A stretch of DNA of 64,000 bases from Bacteroidota bacterium (GCA_013360915.1 JABWAT010000001.1:5259-69258); one strand, 5' to 3'; counted from the stretch's first letter, positions 15,044 to 62,659 are shown. Made by a program: numbers and translations. The notes: generated by a model from the letters alone, not told the origin.

Positions 15044-16858
15044 TTAATCCTCATATTGTACAGCAAAGCCGAAGGCGTACGGACCGGCGTGTGATCCCAG
15101 AACCGGAGAAACCTCGGCGGTAGGGATATCAATTTTTGGCATAACTTTCCGAAGGGCGGCTTCCAATTCAATGGCAGATTGAATATTGGCGGCATGGACC
15201 ACTCCCAAACGCTTGATTTTCCGGGATGTGTTCAACTTTTTCAGGAAATATCCAATGGCCGAACGCCGGGACCTGACTACATCCACCTTTTCAACTTTAC
15301 CATCCGGTTTAAAAGTAAGGATTGGCTTCATGCCCAGCAGCCTGGCGATAAATCCACGAACTTTCGAGAGTCTTCCCCCTTTGATCAGGTACTCGACCGA
15401 ATCGAGATAAAAATAAATTTCGAATTTCGTCCGGATGGCATCCTGTTCATTAACGATCGTTTCTACCGGAACCCCGGCCCGAAGTCTTTCAACCACTTCC
15501 TCGAGCATGAAGCCGGATGCCAGAGACAGGGTTCGTGTGTCAAAATCGAACACCTGCTTACCGGTCCCGGATGACTCAACCTGTCTGGCAGCGGTCAATC
15601 CAGCCTGGTAGGTACCCGAAACAGCAGAACTGAGACTGAACCACAACACTTTGTCTTTCTTCTGAGAAGCAAGGGTGAGGTCTTTCAACAACCGGCCCGG
15701 ATTTGGTAATGAAGTACTGGGTGTCAGTTTCCGGTCTGCCCTGAGGCGGTTGTAAAACTCTTCTGTTGTAATGGTTTCCTGATCCAGGTACTCTTTTCCA
15801 CCAAGAAAAACCTGTAAAGGTGTAACAGTGATGTTGTATTGCTTTCGTGTGGACTCAAAGACAGCACAGGATGAGTCAACCACGATGCTGACAGGTAACG
15901 GATTTTCATTCTCGCCCCAGGTATCGGCATGCTGAGCCCGCATATCCTCATGTTTTTTCTGAAGCACGGTACCATAGGATTCTGCTATCTGGAATACGTC
16001 GTGAGGGGTATTTGTGTGGAGATGAACCCTGATTTTTGTCTTGCTTCCTGCAACAATGATCGAATCGCCATAGGACAGAATCCGGTCCCGTAGTTCATTC
16101 TTTTTAAGGTCTTTTCCTTCAAGAAGAAACTCGGTGCAATATTGGAAATGAATTGATTCGGGGTCAAAGACCACATTGGCATGTGCTTCCATCTCCATAT
16201 CGGAAGCATCCAGTTCGGCAATGGTTTCTTCCTTGACGCTGCCGCTCAGAATGAATGCAGAAACACCCTCTATTATATTCACAAAGCCAGACGCACCAGA
16301 ATCCACAACATTGGCCTTTTTGAGCACTTCCAATTGGTTTGTGGTCTCTGCCAGGGCCCTTTTTAGATCAACCAGTGAGGATTTGATCAGTTTCCGGTAA
16401 TCAGCCTCTGCTTTTGCTAATCGGCTGACCGATTCGGACCAACTTCTCATGACGGTCAGAATGGTCCCTTCCCTGGGTTTACTGATGGCATCCATGGCCA
16501 TCTGAACCGCGTTTTCAATGGCAAGGGCGAAATCACGGGTATCTGCCTTGGACTTTCCCGTGAATCCCTCTGAAAGTCCCTGGAAAAACTGAGCCAGAAT
16601 AGCTCCGGAGTTTCCTCTGGCTGCCATGAGTGCACTTTCAGCAACGGCATTACTCATTTTATAGAGATGCGGTTCGTAGGAATCATACGCACGCTGAAGA
16701 ATGGCCCGCATGGTGGCGGCCATGTTGCTGCCGGTATCACCGTCAGCAACCGGGAACACATTGATCTTATTCAGGTGGTCTTTGTGCCGGATCAGATTCA
16801 GGGAGCCGGCAATCACAGCCCGGCGTAACCGGTGTCCGTTGAGGTAATGAATAGACAT
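15044..16858 (-). CDS. DAK2 (DhaL/FakA-like) domain fused to a DegV (FakB-like) fatty-acid-binding domain
   Basis: The N-terminus has DGDTGSNM and GNSG, as in DhaL/FakA. The middle has YCTEF...RVHLHTN, as in the FakA central domain. The C-terminal ~280 aa carry DegV signatures (IVVDSSC, TSLPNPG, LSSAVSGTYQ). Confidence 0.85.
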   Translation of the reverse strand: MSIHYLNGHRLRRAVIAGSLNLIRHKDHLNKINVFPVADGDTGSNMAATMRAILQRAYDSYEPHLYKMSNAVAESALMAARGNSGAILAQFFQGLSEGFTGKSKADTRDFALAIENAVQMAMDAISKPREGTILTVMRSWSESVSRLAKAEADYRKLIKSSLVDLKRALAETTNQLEVLKKANVVDSGASGFVNIIEGVSAFILSGSVKEETIAELDASDMEMEAHANVVFDPESIHFQYCTEFLLEGKDLKKNELRDRILSYGDSIIVAGSKTKIRVHLHTNTPHDVFQIAESYGTVLQKKHEDMRAQHADTWGENENPLPVSIVVDSSCAVFESTRKQYNITVTPLQVFLGGKEYLDQETITTEEFYNRLRADRKLTPSTSLPNPGRLLKDLTLASQKKDKVLWFSLSSAVSGTYQAGLTAARQVESSGTGKQVFDFDTRTLSLASGFMLEEVVERLRAGVPVETIVNEQDAIRTKFEIYFYLDSVEYLIKGGRLSKVRGFIARLLGMKPILTFKPDGKVEKVDVVRSRRSAIGYFLKKLNTSRKIKRLGVVHAANIQSAIELEAALRKVMPKIDIPTAEVSPVLGSHAGPYAFGFAVQYED

Positions 16859-25648: not shown

Positions 25649-25669
25649 GCAAGTGAATCTTCAGTTAAC

Positions 25670-25696
25670 AAAAAAGGCGCTCTGAGCGCCTTTTTT
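25670..25696. terminator. bidirectional intrinsic terminator (ferredoxin / pta)
   Basis: The sequence is AAAAAA-GGCGC-TCTGA-GCGCC-TTTTTT, lying between convergent genes. Confidence 0.7.
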
Positions 25697-25723
25697 GTTT
25701 TTGTCCTAAGGTCTACCAGCTGG

Positions 25724-35836: not shown

Positions 35837-35855
35837 TCACAAACGGATGATGATA

Positions 35856-35890
35856 AAAAGGGGTCTGCAAGGACCCCTTTTTTTGTTTTT
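35856..35890 (+). terminator. intrinsic terminator after eno
   Basis: GGGGTC-TGCAAG-GACCCC followed by TTTTTTTGTTTTT. Confidence 0.75.
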
Positions 35891-48941: not shown

Positions 48942-48972
48942 AAAAGCCCGGTAAATGCCGGGCTTTTTTTTT
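48942..48972 (+). terminator. intrinsic terminator after pckG
   Basis: AGCCCGG-TAAATG-CCGGGCT followed by a run of 9 T. Confidence 0.78.
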
Positions 48973-55525: not shown

Positions 55526-57561
55526 AAAAAATCACCTGGAGTTTTCTGATCATCCTGATCGGCTGGAGTGTCTCACTACATGCCTCGCTTTCCCCTGAAG
55601 CCCTGCTTTCTCTGAAACAGGTCAGTTCTGCAAGCATGCATCCGAACGGACAGCTGATTGCTTACACCCTGATGATTCCCCGTTCGGCTGGCGACAAACC
55701 CGGCCCCGCCTATAATGAATTGTGGGTTTATGATATCAAAACCGGCAAGTCACGTCCCTTCATTACCGGAAAGGTGAATGTGAGGTCGGTGGAATGGTCA
55801 GTCAACGGCGAGTCCATTCTGTTCCTTACCACGCGGGGTTCGGTTCCCCAGGTTTTTGGAATTTCATTGGCTGGCGGTGAAGCACAAGCACTGACCAACC
55901 ACCCAACAGCAATCAGGGCGTTTCGTGAATCGGGCGATGGGAAAACACTTTACTTCACTTCACAGGAACCCGAGGATCCTTCTCAGAAGAAATTGAAGGA
56001 CCAGGGATATGATTTCATTTATTTCGAGGAAAACTGGACACACATCAACCTGTATGAATCAAAACGTGATGCAACAGGGACCTTCGGCTCGGCCAACCGA
56101 CTGACAGACGGGATCACCGTCAGAGAGTTTGAACTCAGTCCGGACGAAAAAACGATTGCTTTTTCGGGAACCCCTAAAAACCTGATTGATGATGAATATG
56201 TGGATAACCGGATTTACCTCCTTGATCTTTCGACCGGTACCTATAACCGGTTCAGTTCAAACAAGGGAAAACTCGGCACTTTTTCATGGTCTTCCGACTC
56301 AAAGTCCCTTGTTTATACAGGTGCTTTTGATGAAAATGATCATGCAGTCAGCCAGTTATTTTACCATCCGCTTGGAACAAAAGAAGCGATTAATCTGACT
56401 CCCGCTTCTTACCGGGGACATATCAGTGAGGCAACCTGGGCAGATCCATCCACCATTTTGTATCTCGCCGCTGAAGGGACCTCCACCTCATTGTATTCGG
56501 TTTCGCCTGATGGTAAAAAAAGGCAGAAGGTGTTCGATACAGCGTCTTCCGGGTTGGTATTCAGCTTTCCAGATGAATCGCGTGATCGTAAACGCCTGAC
56601 CATGGTTGCTTCCACTCCAATGTCCCCGAATGAATTGTATATGGTTTCGCGGGGTGAAAAACCGGAACGGCTCACGGTTTCCAATCCTGTTCTGGCATCG
56701 GCCACCCTGGGAAAACAGGAAGTGATCACCTATTCTGCTTCTGATGGAGTTCAAATTGAAGGCCTGTTGATCTACCCCGTCGGATATGAAAAAGGGAAAA
56801 CATACCCACTGATCACCATCGTACATGGTGGACCTGAATCCCATTATTCAAATGGTTGGATTACCGGGTACGGGCAACCAGGACAGGTATTTGCTGCCAA
56901 GGGGTATCTGGTATTTTATCCGAATTACCGGGCCAGTACAGGTTATGGTCTTGAATTCGCCCGTGCTGGATTCGGAGATGCGGCGGGACGTGAATTTGAT
57001 GATATCGCCGATGGAATCCGGTTCCTGTTCAGGCAGGGCCTGGCCGACTCCCTTCGTTCAGGAATGATGGGCGGTTCCTATGGTGGATACGCTTCCGCCT
57101 GGTTTGGAACCCGTTACACCGATCTGGTCAGAGCAGTCCATATGTTCGTTGGTATCAGCAACGTTATATCCAAAACCGGAACCACCGATATTCCCCGGGA
57201 GGAATTACTGGTTCATGCAGGAAAGCCCATCGATGAAACCTGGGATTTTTCCCTGAGAAGAAGTCCCATCTATTATGCCGGACAGAGTAAAACAGCCTTT
57301 TTAATATCGGGTGGAACCGAGGATACCCGTGTGCATCCTGGTCAGAGCCTTGAAATGTACAGGGCATTGAAGCGACACAACCATCCGGCTGTCCGCCTGG
57401 TTCAGTATCCCGGTGAACCACATGGCAATCTGAAGCAAACCAGCCGTGCAGATTTTCTTTTCCGCACCCTTGCCTGGATGGATTGGTACGTCCGGGATCT
57501 GAAGCCGCTGAATGGACCGATGCCACCACTCGACATCAGTCATTCCTATGGGTTAAAATGA
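55522..57561 (+). CDS. S9-family serine peptidase (prolyl oligopeptidase / acylaminoacyl-peptidase type)
   Basis: Signal peptide, an N-terminal propeller, the catalytic motif GGSYGGY, then the later GTEDTRV (Asp) and EPHG (His). Confidence 0.9.
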   Translation: MKKITWSFLIILIGWSVSLHASLSPEALLSLKQVSSASMHPNGQLIAYTLMIPRSAGDKPGPAYNELWVYDIKTGKSRPFITGKVNVRSVEWSVNGESILFLTTRGSVPQVFGISLAGGEAQALTNHPTAIRAFRESGDGKTLYFTSQEPEDPSQKKLKDQGYDFIYFEENWTHINLYESKRDATGTFGSANRLTDGITVREFELSPDEKTIAFSGTPKNLIDDEYVDNRIYLLDLSTGTYNRFSSNKGKLGTFSWSSDSKSLVYTGAFDENDHAVSQLFYHPLGTKEAINLTPASYRGHISEATWADPSTILYLAAEGTSTSLYSVSPDGKKRQKVFDTASSGLVFSFPDESRDRKRLTMVASTPMSPNELYMVSRGEKPERLTVSNPVLASATLGKQEVITYSASDGVQIEGLLIYPVGYEKGKTYPLITIVHGGPESHYSNGWITGYGQPGQVFAAKGYLVFYPNYRASTGYGLEFARAGFGDAAGREFDDIADGIRFLFRQGLADSLRSGMMGGSYGGYASAWFGTRYTDLVRAVHMFVGISNVISKTGTTDIPREELLVHAGKPIDETWDFSLRRSPIYYAGQSKTAFLISGGTEDTRVHPGQSLEMYRALKRHNHPAVRLVQYPGEPHGNLKQTSRADFLFRTLAWMDWYVRDLKPLNGPMPPLDISHSYGLK

Positions 57562-57587
57562 AAAAGGGGGCCTTGCCCCCTTTTTTA
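57561..57587. terminator. bidirectional intrinsic terminator
   Basis: AAAAA-GGGGGC-CTT-GCCCCC-TTTTTT lies between the convergent S9 peptidase and the DUF2892-like gene. It overlaps the latter's stop. Confidence 0.72.
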
Positions 57588-58174: not shown

Positions 58175-59092
58175 TCAGTCGTCATTCCGGACGACCGGGT
58201 ACTTGTCCTTCAGAGAAGTTTTGAGTTTTTCATAAGCGGCCTGCCGGGTCAGGGCGATTGCCTTTGCAGACAGATCTGCCTCTTCGGGACGCACTTCACG
58301 CTTATCGGTCACCATCAGAATATGGAAACCACCGGGTGATCTGAAAATATCGGATACTTTATTTTTTTCCATTGAAAAAGCGACTTCTTCAATATGGCTG
58401 ATCAGGGTTCCACGGCGGATGTATCCAAGATCTCCGCCGAAACGAGCAGATCCATCTTCGGAGTACAACCTTGCCAATTTTGAAAAACCAGCTGTGCCAC
58501 TTCCTTCAGCTTGTTTTCTGACCTGATCGAGTCGGCGGTAAGCCGATTCAACCTGCTCTTTCGGGGCAGAAACCGGAACTTTCACCATAATCTGAGATAC
58601 TTTGATTTCAGGAAATACATCGGATTGTTTCAGAGAATCCATGATGGCGGAAGATGCAACGGTAATGGAATCGGTAATGGTAGCTTTCAGAAAGGCATTC
58701 ACTCGGCTGGCATCCCTCAGATCATTCATCCAGTCTTCCTCTGTGATACCACTTTCACGCAATTTTTGCTCAAAGACTGAATCGGACTGAACGGAGGCCT
58801 TAATCATCTGTGATTGGCGATTAACAAAGGCGGTGTCGTACTCGAACCCCGCTTCTCTGGCTGCAAGCGTCAGACGGGCATTGTTAATCATTTCCTCCAG
58901 CAACATATCAGTCAACCGGACACTATCCTCGCTGGAATAGTTGCCAATCCGTTCAAGGGCTTGTTTCACAGCCAACTGATACCGGGTTTTCTTAATGGGA
59001 TAATCACCTACTCTAAGCAGTTCATCATCCGATGTGCCCGAACAGGAGAATAAGATCAGGGTTGAGAGCGAGAGGTAAAGAAACGTTTTCAT
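58175..59092 (-). CDS. parvulin-type peptidyl-prolyl isomerase lipoprotein (SurA/PrsA-like)
   Basis: The ATG at 59092 gives MKTFLYLSLSTLILFSCSG (lipobox). The PpiC domain carries ...FGGDLGYIRRG... and GGFHILMV. The ORF-track N-terminal extension runs through the hairpin array and I rejected it. Confidence 0.85.
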   Translation of the reverse strand: MKTFLYLSLSTLILFSCSGTSDDELLRVGDYPIKKTRYQLAVKQALERIGNYSSEDSVRLTDMLLEEMINNARLTLAAREAGFEYDTAFVNRQSQMIKASVQSDSVFEQKLRESGITEEDWMNDLRDASRVNAFLKATITDSITVASSAIMDSLKQSDVFPEIKVSQIMVKVPVSAPKEQVESAYRRLDQVRKQAEGSGTAGFSKLARLYSEDGSARFGGDLGYIRRGTLISHIEEVAFSMEKNKVSDIFRSPGGFHILMVTDKREVRPEEADLSAKAIALTRQAAYEKLKTSLKDKYPVVRNDD

Positions 59093-59112
59093 AGACTTCC
59101 GATGAATTGATA

Positions 59113-59223
59113 AAATAAAAAAAGGGGAAGGTGTCCCCGTACCTTCCCCTTTGACAAACGGGATAAGGTGTCCCCACTCCTTATCCCTGACAGGTGGAGT
59201 AAAGTGTCCCCATACTTTACCCC
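59113..59223 (-). ncRNA. candidate structured RNA: three tandem hairpins with a conserved loop, the last doubling as an intrinsic terminator
   Basis: The three hairpins are 59121-59152 AAAGGGGAAGG/TGTCCCCGTA/CCTTCCCCTTT, 59160-59187 GGGATAAGG/TGTCCCCACT/CCTTATCCC and 59196-59223 GGAGTAAAG/TGTCCCCATA/CTTTACCCC. In minus sense, hairpin 1 is followed by U7AU4. Confidence 0.45.
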
Positions 59224-59278
59224 TTGCTATTGGTGATGCCAGGCTTGTAGGATCCCGACACCACACCAATTTGGAACA

Positions 59279-59307
59279 AATTTAAAAGGCGATGGTATGA
59301 TTGTCAA
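59279..59307 (-). promoter_or_regulatory. sigma70-like promoter candidate upstream of the hairpin array
   Basis: On the minus strand, TTGACA (59307-59302), a 17-nt spacer, then TAAATT (59284-59279). It sits 23 nt downstream of the rhodanese stop. Confidence 0.3.
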
Positions 59308-59329: not shown

Positions 59330-59740
59330 TTACAGCGAGGCATCTCCGCGCCAGACCTGGTATCCCCCGGCCAGATAGTAAACTTTACTGAACCTGTTTT
59401 TAGCCAGCAGAATGGCAGCTTTTTTAGAACGCGATCCACTTTCACAATAAATCACCACCGGACGGTCCCGGTAGCTTTGCAACCGCAGATCATCCGGCTT
59501 CAGTTGCTTCAGTTCAATATTGATTGACCCGCCGATTTTCCCAAGTTTCAGTTCAGGTTCCGTACGGACATCAACAAGAAGAAAATCCTTATTCGGCTTA
59601 TTGGTTTTCATGTACAGTTTCAGTTCGGCCACATTCAAACGCTCGAAATGTCCGCCTTTGAACCTGATATAAAACTGCTCGCTATATTTCCAAATGATAA
59701 TTGCCGCAACGGCCAGAATAATGATAATACTAAAATCCAT
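59330..59740 (-). CDS. membrane-anchored rhodanese-domain sulfurtransferase
   Basis: An N-terminal TM (IIIILAVAAIIIW) and the rhodanese active-site loop VIYCESGSRS. Confidence 0.85.
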   Translation of the reverse strand: MDFSIIIILAVAAIIIWKYSEQFYIRFKGGHFERLNVAELKLYMKTNKPNKDFLLVDVRTEPELKLGKIGGSINIELKQLKPDDLRLQSYRDRPVVIYCESGSRSKKAAILLAKNRFSKVYYLAGGYQVWRGDASL

Positions 59741-59770: not shown

Positions 59771-62659
59771 CTACAGCCGGTGAAAATCCCCCAGAACCCC
59801 TTCTATTCCATCCTGACGCTGCTGCCATTCGGATTGCAATCCAATTTTCCTGATTGCAAAATCGGCCGTTTCGGTCAGGGTCCTGAATGAGTAAACTGGC
59901 ATATCGGGAAGTGTGGAAAGAAATTCACGGTTCTTCCCTGCCAGAATCCGGCTGTCCAAAACGGTTATCAACCCCTTATCTGTGTCTGACCGGATGAGTC
60001 TTCCTGCCCCCTGCCGGAATTTTAACCGGGCGATTCCATGGTACCAATTCCAGAAACCTGCACCTTCAACTGCCTGTCGGTGTCTGATTTCAGGATCATC
60101 AACCGGGCTGAAAGGTAATTTGACAATAATGACCTGGGAACAGGTGGAGCCCGGAAAATCGACACCGGTCCAGAGGCGATCCACACCTATCAGAACCGAC
60201 TGCTCCAGATTGGTGAATTGTCTGATCTGATCCACACTCGCTCCTTCCTGCCGGATTACGAGGATCCCGGTCTGTTCGAGCGGGTCGGCAATGGCCTGGT
60301 AGATGGCTTCCATCTGCTCGTAACTGGTACACAGGATCAGAGTTCGTCCATTGGTGACCGCACTTAAATACCCACAGGTCGCACTAACCTGGCTGATCCA
60401 TTGGTTCTTCAATGACGGATCACCGGCCCGGAAAGATTGAATCCAGGTGGTGACCCCAATGGCCGCCTGTTCCTGATAGTGAAAGGGTGATTCGATGACG
60501 TTGGTGACGACGGGTACGGACCGGATACCCAATTCATTGCAAAAGAAATCGAAGGACTGGTCCAGCGTCAGAGTTGCGCTGGTAAAAACCCAGGAGGGCA
60601 CCTGATCGAACATGTGACCAGAAAACTGATTTCCGATATAAACAGCCTTTTTGCCAAGATACCAGTCCTTTTCCCTGAGCAACAGATAGTGACACCAAGC
60701 TGAGGACGGATAATCTCTGGAAAACTCGGACAGGCCGGAAATGACCTGATCGAGACGGTTTATAAAAACCAGAAAAGTGGGATTGACGGAAGGTCTGATG
60801 GATAACGTACCCGCCTCTTTCCATTCCGAAATCAGTCCACGGATATCCTGAAGGGGTTCAAGAAGCGGCTTGATCCAGGCCGTTAAGGAATAGGACGATT
60901 CAATCTCAGGAAAATCGGGAAGGTAAGCGGTCGACTTCCCTTTCATATGAACCGAAAACCATCGGTTTACCTGATGAATACCCTCTTCAACCTGATGAAA
61001 CAGGGTGGCCAGATCGAAGCCGGCGTTGGGATGCCCATTCACACTGAGGCCTGTGTGCCAGCCCGGCTGATGCCGGCTTCCCCTTGCAAGCGAAAGCAAC
61101 CGCCAGCAGTCACGGGCCCCTACCTCGGTACTCATACTGCTTCTCAGAAAACCCGGAAACAAGTCGGCTTCATCAACAATGACCGTCCTGCAGGTTTCCA
61201 GCAGAAAATCTGGCATGTTAAAAAATTTGGCGTGATTGATAATCACCAACTGTGACCGCCCCGCTTCTTTCAGAACCTGATCATAAACACAATGACCAAA
61301 ATACTCACAGGTCGATTTGAAACATGACACATCAGAACGGACCATTTCAATGATATCGGACAACCCCGGGATCATTTGGTATAAGGCTTCAGGAATAGAT
61401 TCCAGATCCACATAATCCCGGTAGGCCGTCAGGTGTATGAGATAAACCAGAACAAAATAGTCCGCCTCATTATGCCGACCGATTCCCTCCTCGGTCAGAA
61501 GACGCAACCGGCGCCTGACCGATCCCAGACAGCAATAATTCTGCCGGCCCTTCAGAATGGCGGTTTCAATGGAGCGGAATGCTTCGGGGAACCATTTTTT
61601 CAGTGACCTGATTTCCTTCCAGAAAATCTGGTGCTGGAGGTTCTTCAAAGCGGTTGAAACAATGATACGCTGGCCCGGATTTAACCGTAAAAATTCCATG
61701 GCGGGAATCAGATAACCAAGGGATTTACCGGTTCCGGTACCTGCTTCAATGAGCAACGGATCCCCCTGATTGATTGCACTGACAACAGAGCCGGCATATT
61801 GAATCTGCTGAGGTCTGGCCCGGAATTTTCCAGAGGTTTTCGCGGGAAGACCGGTCTGGAAATAATCGACGACCAACGCTTCATTCACCGGTGCCATGCT
61901 CATGGCAGGCATTCGCTGATCGGCCCCGGGTTTCATTCGCAGTAAATTTCTCAGATAGGCATCCAAAGAAGTCAGTTGTACAGACATGAGTCCGGCCTGA
62001 TCGCCTCGGATGGCTTGAAATTGATCCAATCCGGCGAGCACGGAAGCAAAAAACCGGAATAATCCGGAAGATTCTTCCAGTGGTTTCATCAACGTGGCCA
62101 GAGTGGCCAGGTGCTGGTCGGTGCCGATCGCATGGTTATAGAATCGGAGAAGATCGGTCAACCGGTTCATCTGAGGTGCTTTCCCGGGCTGGTGCAATGT
62201 ATGATGGACCAGCGACCACAGATCGGAGGGGTGTGCACTCTCGCGTTGGGGATGAGTGATCTGAAACATCAACCGAAGATCGATCCAGTTACCCGCCGGC
62301 CAGGCTGGATTGTAAGCTTTTAATCGCCGGATCAGGGAAGGTTCATTCCAGAAGAGAACGAAATCGGAGCCGGCGATTTCCTGTTCAAGCAGCGCCAGCA
62401 TTCCGGACCGGGTGGCCTGCCTGATTGAAAAACCGGCCTCTTCTGCATGTTTCTTTTCTGATGGGGTGAGCGGATCTGAATCGGAGCAGAAAAGCTGAAG
62501 TTGGGTGGTTTCCCGGTCACTGACCATGTCGGATACCTGAATACGGGTGATCCGGTCGGTAAACCGGGAAGGTCCCGTCTCGGTTATTTCCACCAGCGTG
62601 ACCCGAATGACCGGTTTAAACATTTCCGGCGTCGTCATTGAAATTGCCCGGTTTCTCAC
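59771..62659 (-). CDS. dinG: DinG/XPD-family Fe-S ATP-dependent DNA helicase with an N-terminal DnaQ-like (apparently degenerate) domain
   Basis: Walker A EAGTGTGKSLGY, DEAD-box VIVDEADL, Fe-S cysteines (NYCC...C..C....C) and C-terminal helicase motifs (TSATL, GxxWxGVD, LxQxxGRLIR). Confidence 0.85.
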   Translation of the reverse strand: MRNRAISMTTPEMFKPVIRVTLVEITETGPSRFTDRITRIQVSDMVSDRETTQLQLFCSDSDPLTPSEKKHAEEAGFSIRQATRSGMLALLEQEIAGSDFVLFWNEPSLIRRLKAYNPAWPAGNWIDLRLMFQITHPQRESAHPSDLWSLVHHTLHQPGKAPQMNRLTDLLRFYNHAIGTDQHLATLATLMKPLEESSGLFRFFASVLAGLDQFQAIRGDQAGLMSVQLTSLDAYLRNLLRMKPGADQRMPAMSMAPVNEALVVDYFQTGLPAKTSGKFRARPQQIQYAGSVVSAINQGDPLLIEAGTGTGKSLGYLIPAMEFLRLNPGQRIIVSTALKNLQHQIFWKEIRSLKKWFPEAFRSIETAILKGRQNYCCLGSVRRRLRLLTEEGIGRHNEADYFVLVYLIHLTAYRDYVDLESIPEALYQMIPGLSDIIEMVRSDVSCFKSTCEYFGHCVYDQVLKEAGRSQLVIINHAKFFNMPDFLLETCRTVIVDEADLFPGFLRSSMSTEVGARDCWRLLSLARGSRHQPGWHTGLSVNGHPNAGFDLATLFHQVEEGIHQVNRWFSVHMKGKSTAYLPDFPEIESSYSLTAWIKPLLEPLQDIRGLISEWKEAGTLSIRPSVNPTFLVFINRLDQVISGLSEFSRDYPSSAWCHYLLLREKDWYLGKKAVYIGNQFSGHMFDQVPSWVFTSATLTLDQSFDFFCNELGIRSVPVVTNVIESPFHYQEQAAIGVTTWIQSFRAGDPSLKNQWISQVSATCGYLSAVTNGRTLILCTSYEQMEAIYQAIADPLEQTGILVIRQEGASVDQIRQFTNLEQSVLIGVDRLWTGVDFPGSTCSQVIIVKLPFSPVDDPEIRHRQAVEGAGFWNWYHGIARLKFRQGAGRLIRSDTDKGLITVLDSRILAGKNREFLSTLPDMPVYSFRTLTETADFAIRKIGLQSEWQQRQDGIEGVLGDFHRL

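Follow-up and report, generated by a model that had tools for sequence, protein, structure and literature searches.

A predicted small RNA gene with three invariant GGGGA-loop hairpins in uncultured Bacteroidota

The stretch of DNA analysed here, 64 kb from a Bacteroidota bacterium (JABWAT010000001.1:5259-69258, in the following called the window), contains an array of three tandem hairpins in the spacer between a rhodanese gene and a parvulin gene. Comparison with related loci indicates that this spacer very probably encodes an independent, structured, real small RNA (sRNA) gene, which is read from the minus strand. That the sRNA constitutes an RNA family absent from Rfam and previously undescribed is well supported; the family is conserved at a syntenic position in at least eight uncultured Bacteroidota lineages which, as far as seen, form one deep uncultured lineage. 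As a whole, the best explanation, and in our view a probable one, is an sRNA gene whose product acts in trans as a protein decoy or scaffold. An earlier reading made from the sequence alone (the sequence-only reading) had proposed a self-contained promoter-to-terminator unit of about 160 nucleotides (nt) on the minus strand; the conserved promoter, the covarying stems, the invariant loops, the conserved terminator and the high conservation of the sRNA body support this proposal.

Structure, strand and conservation of the sRNA

The spacer is 237 nt long in the window, and both flanking genes lie on the minus strand, with the rhodanese stop at 59330 and the parvulin ATG at 59092. Written on the plus strand, the hairpins are AAAGGGGAAGG-TGTCCCCGTA-CCTTCCCCTTT (59121-59152), GGGATAAGG-TGTCCCCACT-CCTTATCCC (59160-59187), and GGAGTAAAG-TGTCCCCATA-CTTTACCCC (59196-59223). 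The array has a period of 37 and 36 nt, and the units are 64-72% identical to each other. The sequence-only reading had given these coordinates correctly, as well as the loop heptamer that is invariant in the three hairpins (TGTCCCC on the plus strand, GGGGACA on the minus strand), the compensatory stem differences at pairs 2, 5, 6, and 9, and the flanking features, namely the two gene boundaries, the length of the spacer, a U7AU4 tail and a TTGACA-17-TAAATT site at 59307-59279. It had overlooked that pair 7 of the third hairpin (59196-59223) is A·C on the plus strand and G·U on the minus strand, that the -10-like element reaches a Bacteroidota -7 box, TAAATTTG, at 59277-59284, and that a fourth, conserved 5' hairpin (P1, 59229-59270) precedes the array. 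The three-hairpin arrangement exceeds chance, because the heptamer is rare (seven TGTCCCC sites in 64 kb, below a shuffled mean of 13.4; three of these seven are the array loops), because its loop is unique to the array (comparably long perfect hairpins elsewhere in the window are few, and none has a GGGGACA loop), and because seven other lineages have the complete arrangement as well.

These lineages were found via the 136-residue rhodanese, which was used as a single sequence and then as a profile; all relatives therefore stem from one orthogroup of one protein. The rhodanese homologs have 94, 63, 59, 58, 54, 53, 52, and 49% identity. Sufficient flanking DNA was available for seven lineages (loci L236; L246-249; L240; L253; L237-239; L254-255; L250-252). 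Common to all seven is the gene order DinG-like helicase, rhodanese, a spacer of 236-371 nt, and SurA-like parvulin; where the contigs reach, lspA lies upstream and a TPR gene downstream. Counting the window, eight of the eight lineages of the rhodanese orthogroup with enough spacer sequence carry the sRNA element. In minus-strand sense, every syntenic spacer consists of a promoter, P1 with a CCYRCU loop, three YGGGGA(C) hairpins, linkers of the RCCUGUCA type, and a U-rich tail. Missing conservation of the loop heptamer or of the pairing in orthologous spacers would have spoken against the sequence-only reading; the spacers examined keep the YGGGGA(C) loops and the pairing. The cluster mates of two rhodanese homologs are labelled "Bacteroidetes/Bacteroidota bacterium" at NCBI. 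Loci of more distant rhodaneses (41-46% identity) are non-syntenic and do not contain the hairpins. Contigs of the same strain (L001-L006, L127-L129) were set aside, since they are 100% identical and give no comparative information. The parvulin was dropped as a query for synteny; owing to the word prefilter, its nearest match had 35% identity.

A covariance model (R1) was built from four lineages. In the syntenic loci, R1 detected one copy each, with scores of 95-129 bits, which led to an alignment of 10 sequences. Of 299 stem cells in this alignment, 97% form standard pairs. Changes on both sides of a pair occur at 12 of the 30 pairs (32 cells), and these values were reached by none of 500 shuffles. 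When the pairing partners were slid by 1-3 columns as a control, pairing amounted to 53-59%, with at most three double-change pairs. An alignment generated by MAFFT only gave the same picture of covariation as the R1 alignment, and RNAalifold, applied to the full-length sequences, independently recovered all four hairpins.

Read on the minus strand of the window, the stems contain 25 G·U cells as compared to 4 A·C cells. This asymmetry argues for an RNA on the minus strand, because a plus-strand RNA or a DNA cruciform would not pair at these positions. Promoter and U-tract lie on the same strand as the RNA favoured by the G·U cells. The sequence-only reading had also considered transcription of the plus strand, which would create UCCC-type anti-Shine-Dalgarno loops; the ratio of G·U to A·C cells rejects this option. 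The folding energies of -77.2 kcal/mol (plus strand) and -75.0 kcal/mol (minus strand) cannot separate the strands.

The promoter consists of the -35/-33-like hexamer TTGACA (59302-59307, minus strand) and the -7 box TAAATTTG (59277-59284, minus strand), which is of the Bacteroidota sigma-A type TAnnTTTG; the corresponding position of the orthologs reads TAnnTT(T/A)N. In all aligned sequences except L254, which has TTGCAT, TTGAC(A/T) is found exactly 17 nt 5' of the -7 box. The promoter TTGAC(A/T)-N17-TAnnTT(T/A)N aligns without gaps across the lineages, while the sequence of the 17-nt spacer itself varies. The 64-kb window contains exactly one match to TTGAC-N18-TAnnTTTG, which is the one at the sRNA promoter. 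In Bacteroidetes, TAnnTTTG at -7 marks the promoters of the primary sigma factor (PMC7366714), and the box fits the Bacteroidota taxonomic label of the relatives.

The predicted transcript comprises about 159 nt (59113-59271, minus strand), starting approximately 6 nt past the -7 box and ending within the U-tract. Its first element is P1 (59229-59270, minus strand), a hairpin with a two-tier stem and the apical loop AUCCUACAAG at 59244-59253 (consensus CCYRCU). RNAfold gave P1 in every ortholog, with stem sequences that differ; RNAalifold predicted it independently, with double changes at four of six pairs. The next hairpin, h1 (GGGGUAAAGU-AUGGGGAC-ACUUUACUCC, 59196-59223, minus strand), has a G·U as its third pair; in the 10 sequences its helix is 100% paired, with double changes at five of 10 pairs. 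The linker ACCUGUCA (59188-59195, minus strand; consensus RCCUGUCA) is conserved in the alignments, with GCUCGAA in its place in three lineages. Hairpin h2 (GGGAUAAGG-AGUGGGGACA-CCUUAUCCC, 59160-59187, minus strand) has a helix that is 97% paired, with double changes at four pairs; in its loop, an inner U-A/G-C pair closes a GGGA tetraloop, and the inner G-C is found in seven of seven sequences (RNAalifold). In the following linker, GUUUGUC(A) (59153-59159, minus strand), UGUCA is kept in all lineages. Hairpin h3 (AAAGGGGAAGGU-ACGGGGAC-ACCUUCCCCUUU, 59121-59152, minus strand) is the terminator stem, for which the terminator scan counted 12 pairs. Its core GGGGGAAGG/CCUUCCCC is kept in most lineages; the stem of L254 differs. 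The U-tract UUUUAUUUU (59112-59120, minus strand) extends the three U of this stem. According to the terminator scan, h3 and the U7AU4 tail constitute an intrinsic terminator; h3 with a U-rich tail on its 3' side was found in all lineages, and this tail is weaker in L250-252 (AUUUUAU). Considering the three loops of all 10 sequences, GGGGA occurs in 30 of 30 and GGGGAC in 29 of 30 cases, and the preceding residue is a pyrimidine in 30 of 30.

In a comparison with L236, the nearest relative, 155 of the 156 positions of the sRNA body (59121-59276) were identical (99.4%), and the -35 and -7 boxes were 100% identical. The values for the surroundings were 75% for the 3' end of the helicase gene, 83% for the rhodanese coding sequence, 73% for the segment from the rhodanese stop to the -35 box, 78% for the promoter spacer, 75% for the U-tract and the 5' region of the parvulin gene, and 76% for the parvulin coding sequence. 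Judged from these comparisons, the sRNA is under strong purifying selection, which is strongest on the three identical loops and the P1 loop.

The sequence-only reading had not recognised the unit as a named RNA family. In agreement with this assessment, Rfam 15 gave no match at gathering score over the window, and for the sRNA there was nothing at E ≤ 10 in the window nor at E ≤ 1 in five orthologs.

Possible modes of action

Concerning the function of the sRNA, action as a protein decoy or scaffold ranks first, base pairing next, and a role in cis well behind. The first of these, taken by itself, is a tentative proposal made by analogy. A strong housekeeping-type promoter, TTGACA-N17-TAAATTTG, is predicted to drive the synthesis of a four-hairpin RNA, in which P1 with its C-rich loop CCYRCU is followed by three paralogous hairpins of 9-12 bp, separated by linkers of 8-9 nt of the RCCUGUCA type. 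All three hairpins present YGGGGAC in a loop with an apex able to close as G-[GGGA]-C, and the third constitutes, together with the U-tract, the intrinsic terminator. The RNA would act in trans, its three identical Shine-Dalgarno-like GGA loops forming a decoy or scaffold of fixed valency for a loop-specific RNA-binding protein. Candidate partners would be one of the rare CsrA proteins of Bacteroidota, an RRM-1 protein similar to RbpB, or another factor. This proposal is suggested by the architecture, since one exposed motif in three copies, fixed in number and spacing and carried by stable stems, points to a platform for a sequence-specific partner.

GGA is part of the loops, which are similar to the AGGA-type ribosome-binding sites of some genes of this organism. 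As a separate observation, AGGA/AAGG is about 3.3-fold enriched at positions -20 to -4 before the starts of about 46 predicted genes of the window, e.g. in AAAAGGAGCC-ATG and GTAAGGAGAG-ATG; in contrast to Bacteroidia and Flavobacteriia, the lineage of the window thus seems to rely on Shine-Dalgarno-like sites for some of its genes. GGA in hairpin loops is recognised by CsrA (PMC13443453), and the Bacteroides RRM-1 protein RbpB binds GUAGGAUA (bioRxiv 10.1101/2021.04.27.441718).

Several points weigh against a decoy or scaffold encoded by a gene of its own. According to the literature, CsrA homologs are scarce in Bacteroidota, and none was found in gut Bacteroidetes. With CsrA, Hfq, FliW, and an RRM consensus, tblastn gave no match in the 238 kb of window and syntenic loci, a sample too small to decide the matter and searched with approximate queries. 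A direct search of about 130 kb for a second hairpin with a stem of at least 9 bp and a GGGGA loop found none, and no mRNA leader there carries one. The ends of the transcript are those predicted from the positions of promoter and terminator. Finally, known sponge RNAs have many GGA sites in variable number, which are located on short stems and in linkers; the sRNA has exactly three GGA sites, long stable stems, and no GGA in its linkers.

Alternatively, the same sRNA may act by base pairing, a possibility to which we give somewhat less credence. The YGGGGAC loops and/or the P1 loop CCYRCU would then be redundant seeds for kissing contacts with target mRNAs or with a second sRNA, at complementary C-rich (GUCCCCR) or G-rich sites. 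The 6-7 invariant, loop-exposed nucleotides match the usual size of a seed, P1 offers a second conserved and accessible loop above a covarying stem, and there would be a parallel to RsaE/RoxS and RNAIII, whose C-rich loops are repeated. Moreover, pairing that needs neither Hfq nor ProQ nor CsrA is the mode of action of GibS-like sRNAs of Bacteroides (PMC7366714). However, no conserved complementary site was found near the starts of neighbouring genes, and the other TGTCCCC sites of the window are not leader- or start-like, as judged by eye from the table of open reading frames (ORFs) without a dedicated test. Three identical G-rich seeds would require a C-rich target of a generic kind, of which no example is known. 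On inspection, the P1 loop and the G-rich loops did not show covariation. Note that predicting targets of a 6-mer in 64 kb has no statistical power. Kissing of the P1 loop with the G-rich loops and pairing of the linker UGUC with GACA of the loop were also considered as intramolecular contacts and were rejected, as inspection revealed no consistent complementarity or covariation.

If the sRNA does act as a protein decoy or scaffold, it could be the first CsrB-like protein-titrating RNA of fixed valency in Bacteroidota, and the YGGGGAC loops could represent the site of a global RNA-binding protein that normally acts on AGGA-type ribosome-binding sites. We regard this extension as speculative and rather doubtful; were it true, the RNA-binding protein could be isolated directly by means of the titrating RNA. 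To our knowledge, Hfq, ProQ, and CsrA are absent or rare in Bacteroidota, and the few sRNAs characterised so far are all from gut Bacteroides. Post-transcriptional control in this phylum is poorly understood, and the sRNA adds a well-supported new family from a deep uncultured branch, with a clean promoter and terminator and a body that is better conserved than the surrounding protein genes. The three identical loops at fixed spacing strongly imply a specific multivalent partner, and they provide a concrete bait to find it. The seed alignment and the covariance model could be submitted to Rfam. A constraint in practice is the host, for which metagenomes are the only source.

Roles in cis and dispersed repeats as alternatives

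The sequence-only reading had left two options, an sRNA or a 5' leader/attenuator of the parvulin gene; our results favour the independent sRNA and disfavour the leader. A cis-acting leader would imply that transcription reaches the parvulin gene only when the terminator hairpin is bypassed. This reading is improbable, although the adjacency of sRNA and parvulin is kept in all lineages. In L246, L250-251, L254, L240, and L253, 68-115 nt follow h3, and a perfect TAnnTTTG box is located 24-29 nt before the parvulin ATG. Because these five lineages have a parvulin box 3' of the terminator, the sRNA unit is best regarded as a transcription unit of its own, with the parvulin gene normally transcribed alone. 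In addition, h3 and the U7-8 that follow it form a strong terminator, the RNAalifold consensus shows no conserved alternative (antiterminator) pairing, and attenuation does not need three identical loops. An argument for a leader, and at the same time a point against a fully independent sRNA, comes from the window and L236: there, the gap between the U-tract and the parvulin ATG is only 19 nt, and the sole promoter-like element is the degenerate -7-like box TATTTTAT (59110-59117, minus strand), a putative element which is located 17 nt 5' of the ATG and overlaps the U-tract. Thus, in the lineage of the window there may be some read-through or a secondary cis role for the parvulin gene.

Even less credible is the assumption of a passive role for the hairpins at the 3' end of the helicase-rhodanese operon, as a terminator with duplicated stabiliser hairpins and no function of their own. 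In the window, the rhodanese stop and the array are not separated by a terminator, so that read-through would end at h3, and terminators consisting of an A-run, a hairpin, and a T-run are common there. This assumption is contradicted by the conserved promoter located between the rhodanese gene and the hairpins; furthermore, the invariant loops and a body identity of 99.4%, as compared to 83% for the rhodanese, exceed the needs of a stabiliser. In L237 (10470-10505), which is the most distant of the relatives that are sampled well, reading by eye suggests that the rhodanese gene has an intrinsic terminator of its own (ACAGGG-TAAAT-CCCTGT, then T7) 5' of the sRNA promoter. This apparent terminator likewise argues for the sRNA as a separate transcription unit; the lineage of the window lacks one of this type between the rhodanese stop and the array.

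The window contains further perfect palindromes of 10-14 bp with an A-run, a GC-hairpin, and a T-run, at 25667-25699, 35855-35882, 48942-48967, and 57561-57585; several are located at the ends of genes, and their appearance is that of intrinsic terminators acting in both directions. The terminator stem of the sRNA, AAAGGGG...CCCCTTT, is of the same style.

That the array is a dispersed repeat of the REP (repetitive extragenic palindromic)/BIME (bacterial interspersed mosaic element) or MITE (miniature inverted-repeat transposable element) type, a DNA-level array of protein sites, or a plus-strand RNA with UCCC anti-Shine-Dalgarno loops is hardly tenable: multicopy tandem hairpins with related apices do exist in other Bacteroidota (L023, Ferruginibacter; L052, Algoriphagus) and the plus strand folds about equally well, but the L023 and L052 matches score at most 25 bits and have T-runs and loop word on different strands, the window and about 175 kb of syntenic loci have one copy per locus, at a position that is fixed in eight lineages, and on the plus strand or in a cruciform the 25 G·U cells would become A·C mismatches, with promoter and U-tract both on the minus strand. 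Copies scattered over many intergenic sites, which the sequence-only reading had named as the mark of a REP-like element, were accordingly not seen in the window or in the syntenic loci. In 209 unrelated loci that had been pre-selected for the loop word, R1 reached at most 36 bits.

Outside the syntenic loci, among the matches listed for a two-loop pattern in genome contigs were chance matches in high-GC genomes. A three-loop pattern in viral contigs detected collagen-like coding repeats and phage iterons rather than the sRNA, and stricter loop patterns gave zero or only chance matches in these contigs. A metagenome scan with the loop word yielded 89 loci with assorted tandem repeats, none of which scored above 36 bits with R1.

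Some hairpin clusters seen during these searches deserve mention in their own right. In the Ferruginibacter metagenome-assembled genome JANMAV010000125.1 (L023:1-536, minus strand), a long non-coding hairpin array is located 3' of a gene cluster and extends to the contig end. It has GTG-TCCC-CAC apices and variants (GTGAGGACAC, GTGAGTACAC), several of which are followed by T6-7, and two copies lie 37 nt apart; with no Rfam match and 25 bits with R1, it looks like a multicopy hairpin/sRNA array. Algoriphagus mannitolivorans DSM 15301 (L052:7100-7700, minus strand) has, in one intergenic region, at least six hairpins CCATTGTGAGTG-TCCC-CACTCACAAT with the variant apices TCTC and AGGA; Rfam gave no match to this cluster, and only a tRNA elsewhere in the locus. 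A hairpin pair GGAAAT-AGGTAAGGTGTCCCC-NGATTTCC recurs in L152:7290-7400, L177:8150-8240, L219, L211, L182, L191, and L207, which originate from different metagenomes. The pair of the L152/L177 type shares the 13-nt word GTAAGGTGTCCCC with the antisense of the stem and loop of the sRNA, which is probably due to chance.

Neighbouring genes and comparison with known systems

The proteins encoded next to the sRNA (rhodanese, PpiC/SurA-type parvulin, TPR, YgaP-like) are ordinary. The upstream neighbour (59330-59740, minus strand) is a membrane-anchored rhodanese-domain protein of 136 residues (Pfam PF00581, E = 5e-18), which served as query for the syntenic loci. The downstream neighbour (58175-59092, minus strand) is a SurA-like/PpiC-type parvulin of 305 residues with a lipoprotein-type signal sequence (Pfam Rotamase, Rotamase_3, SurA_N_3). 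The mechanical ORF list lengthens the parvulin by 59 codons across the hairpins (58175-59269, minus strand; start TTG at 59269), which gives rise to a repeated WGH encoded by UGGGGACAC. This coding reading was rejected: the in-frame extension contains stop codons in every ortholog, and the hairpin region is therefore non-coding. As judged from the orthologous sequences, the extension is an artefact, and the true start is the ATG at 59092, which gives a signal peptide and a lipobox.

The DinG/YoaA-family helicase (59771-62659, minus strand), which adjoins the rhodanese gene in all relatives, has an N-terminal extension of about 270 residues. Its top PADLOC match is the type IV CRISPR-associated DinG (Csf4, E = 5e-89). 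A link to type IV CRISPR was rejected, as the homology is that of generic DinG/YoaA proteins and no cas genes or array are nearby. Apart from this generic DinG homology, PADLOC gave no defence or toxin match for the neighbouring proteins. At an unrelated site of the window (15044-16858, minus strand), a single protein of 604 residues has a DAK2/YloV (FakA-like) domain fused to a DegV (FakB-like) domain; the fatty-acid kinase components FakA and FakB are normally separate proteins.

Among known RNAs, those of the CsrB/CsrC/RsmX/RsmY/RsmZ group (Rfam clan CL00106) are similar to the sRNA in being encoded by stand-alone genes with their own promoter and terminator, and in having several GGA-loop hairpins with a loop that resembles a ribosome-binding site. 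The multivalent titration that the sRNA architecture would imply is, in principle, like that of CsrB and RsmZ, which titrate CsrA. In contrast, the conserved motif is YGGGGAC here and A(N)GGA there, and conservation extends well beyond GGA; the sRNA has three sites in every lineage, stems of 9-12 bp, and linkers without GGA. The Rfam models of the clan did not match the sRNA in the window or in five orthologs; the sole CsrC match, with 17.5 bits (gathering score 61), was located on an unrelated terminator in L240. The analogy would thus be an architectural resemblance only.

The Firmicutes RNAs RsaE/RoxS and RNAIII likewise repeat a short motif in several loops of one sRNA, with one copy in the terminator hairpin. 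Their repeated UCCC loops are C-rich, whereas those of the sRNA are G-rich on the transcribed strand and only P1 is C-rich; the match of the Rfam RsaE model was on the wrong strand and had 13.9 bits (gathering score 79). GibS has the same phylum-level type of promoter (TAnnTTTG at -7), is intergenic, ends with a Rho-independent terminator, and belongs to a host group mostly without Hfq, ProQ, and CsrA; it differs in its long single-stranded 5' seed and the lack of repeated loops, and there is no homology (PMC7366714).

ToxI, the RNA of type III toxin-antitoxin systems, resembles the sRNA in its layout, with a promoter, tandem repeats of about 36 nt, and then a terminator directly 5' of a protein gene. 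The repeats of the sRNA are, however, divergent hairpins (64-72% identical), whereas those of ToxI are near-identical pseudoknot units, and the gene downstream of the sRNA encodes a SurA-like parvulin lipoprotein and has its own promoter. A type III antitoxin was therefore rejected; PADLOC gave no match for the PpiC/SurA-like parvulin, and a ToxN-like protein is lacking. Finally, REP/BIME elements are also tandem GC-rich hairpins in spacers between genes of the same strand. The element described here differs from these in being single-copy, syntenic, and promoter-driven, with invariant loops and covarying stems, and the G·U pairs in its stems indicate selection at the level of RNA.

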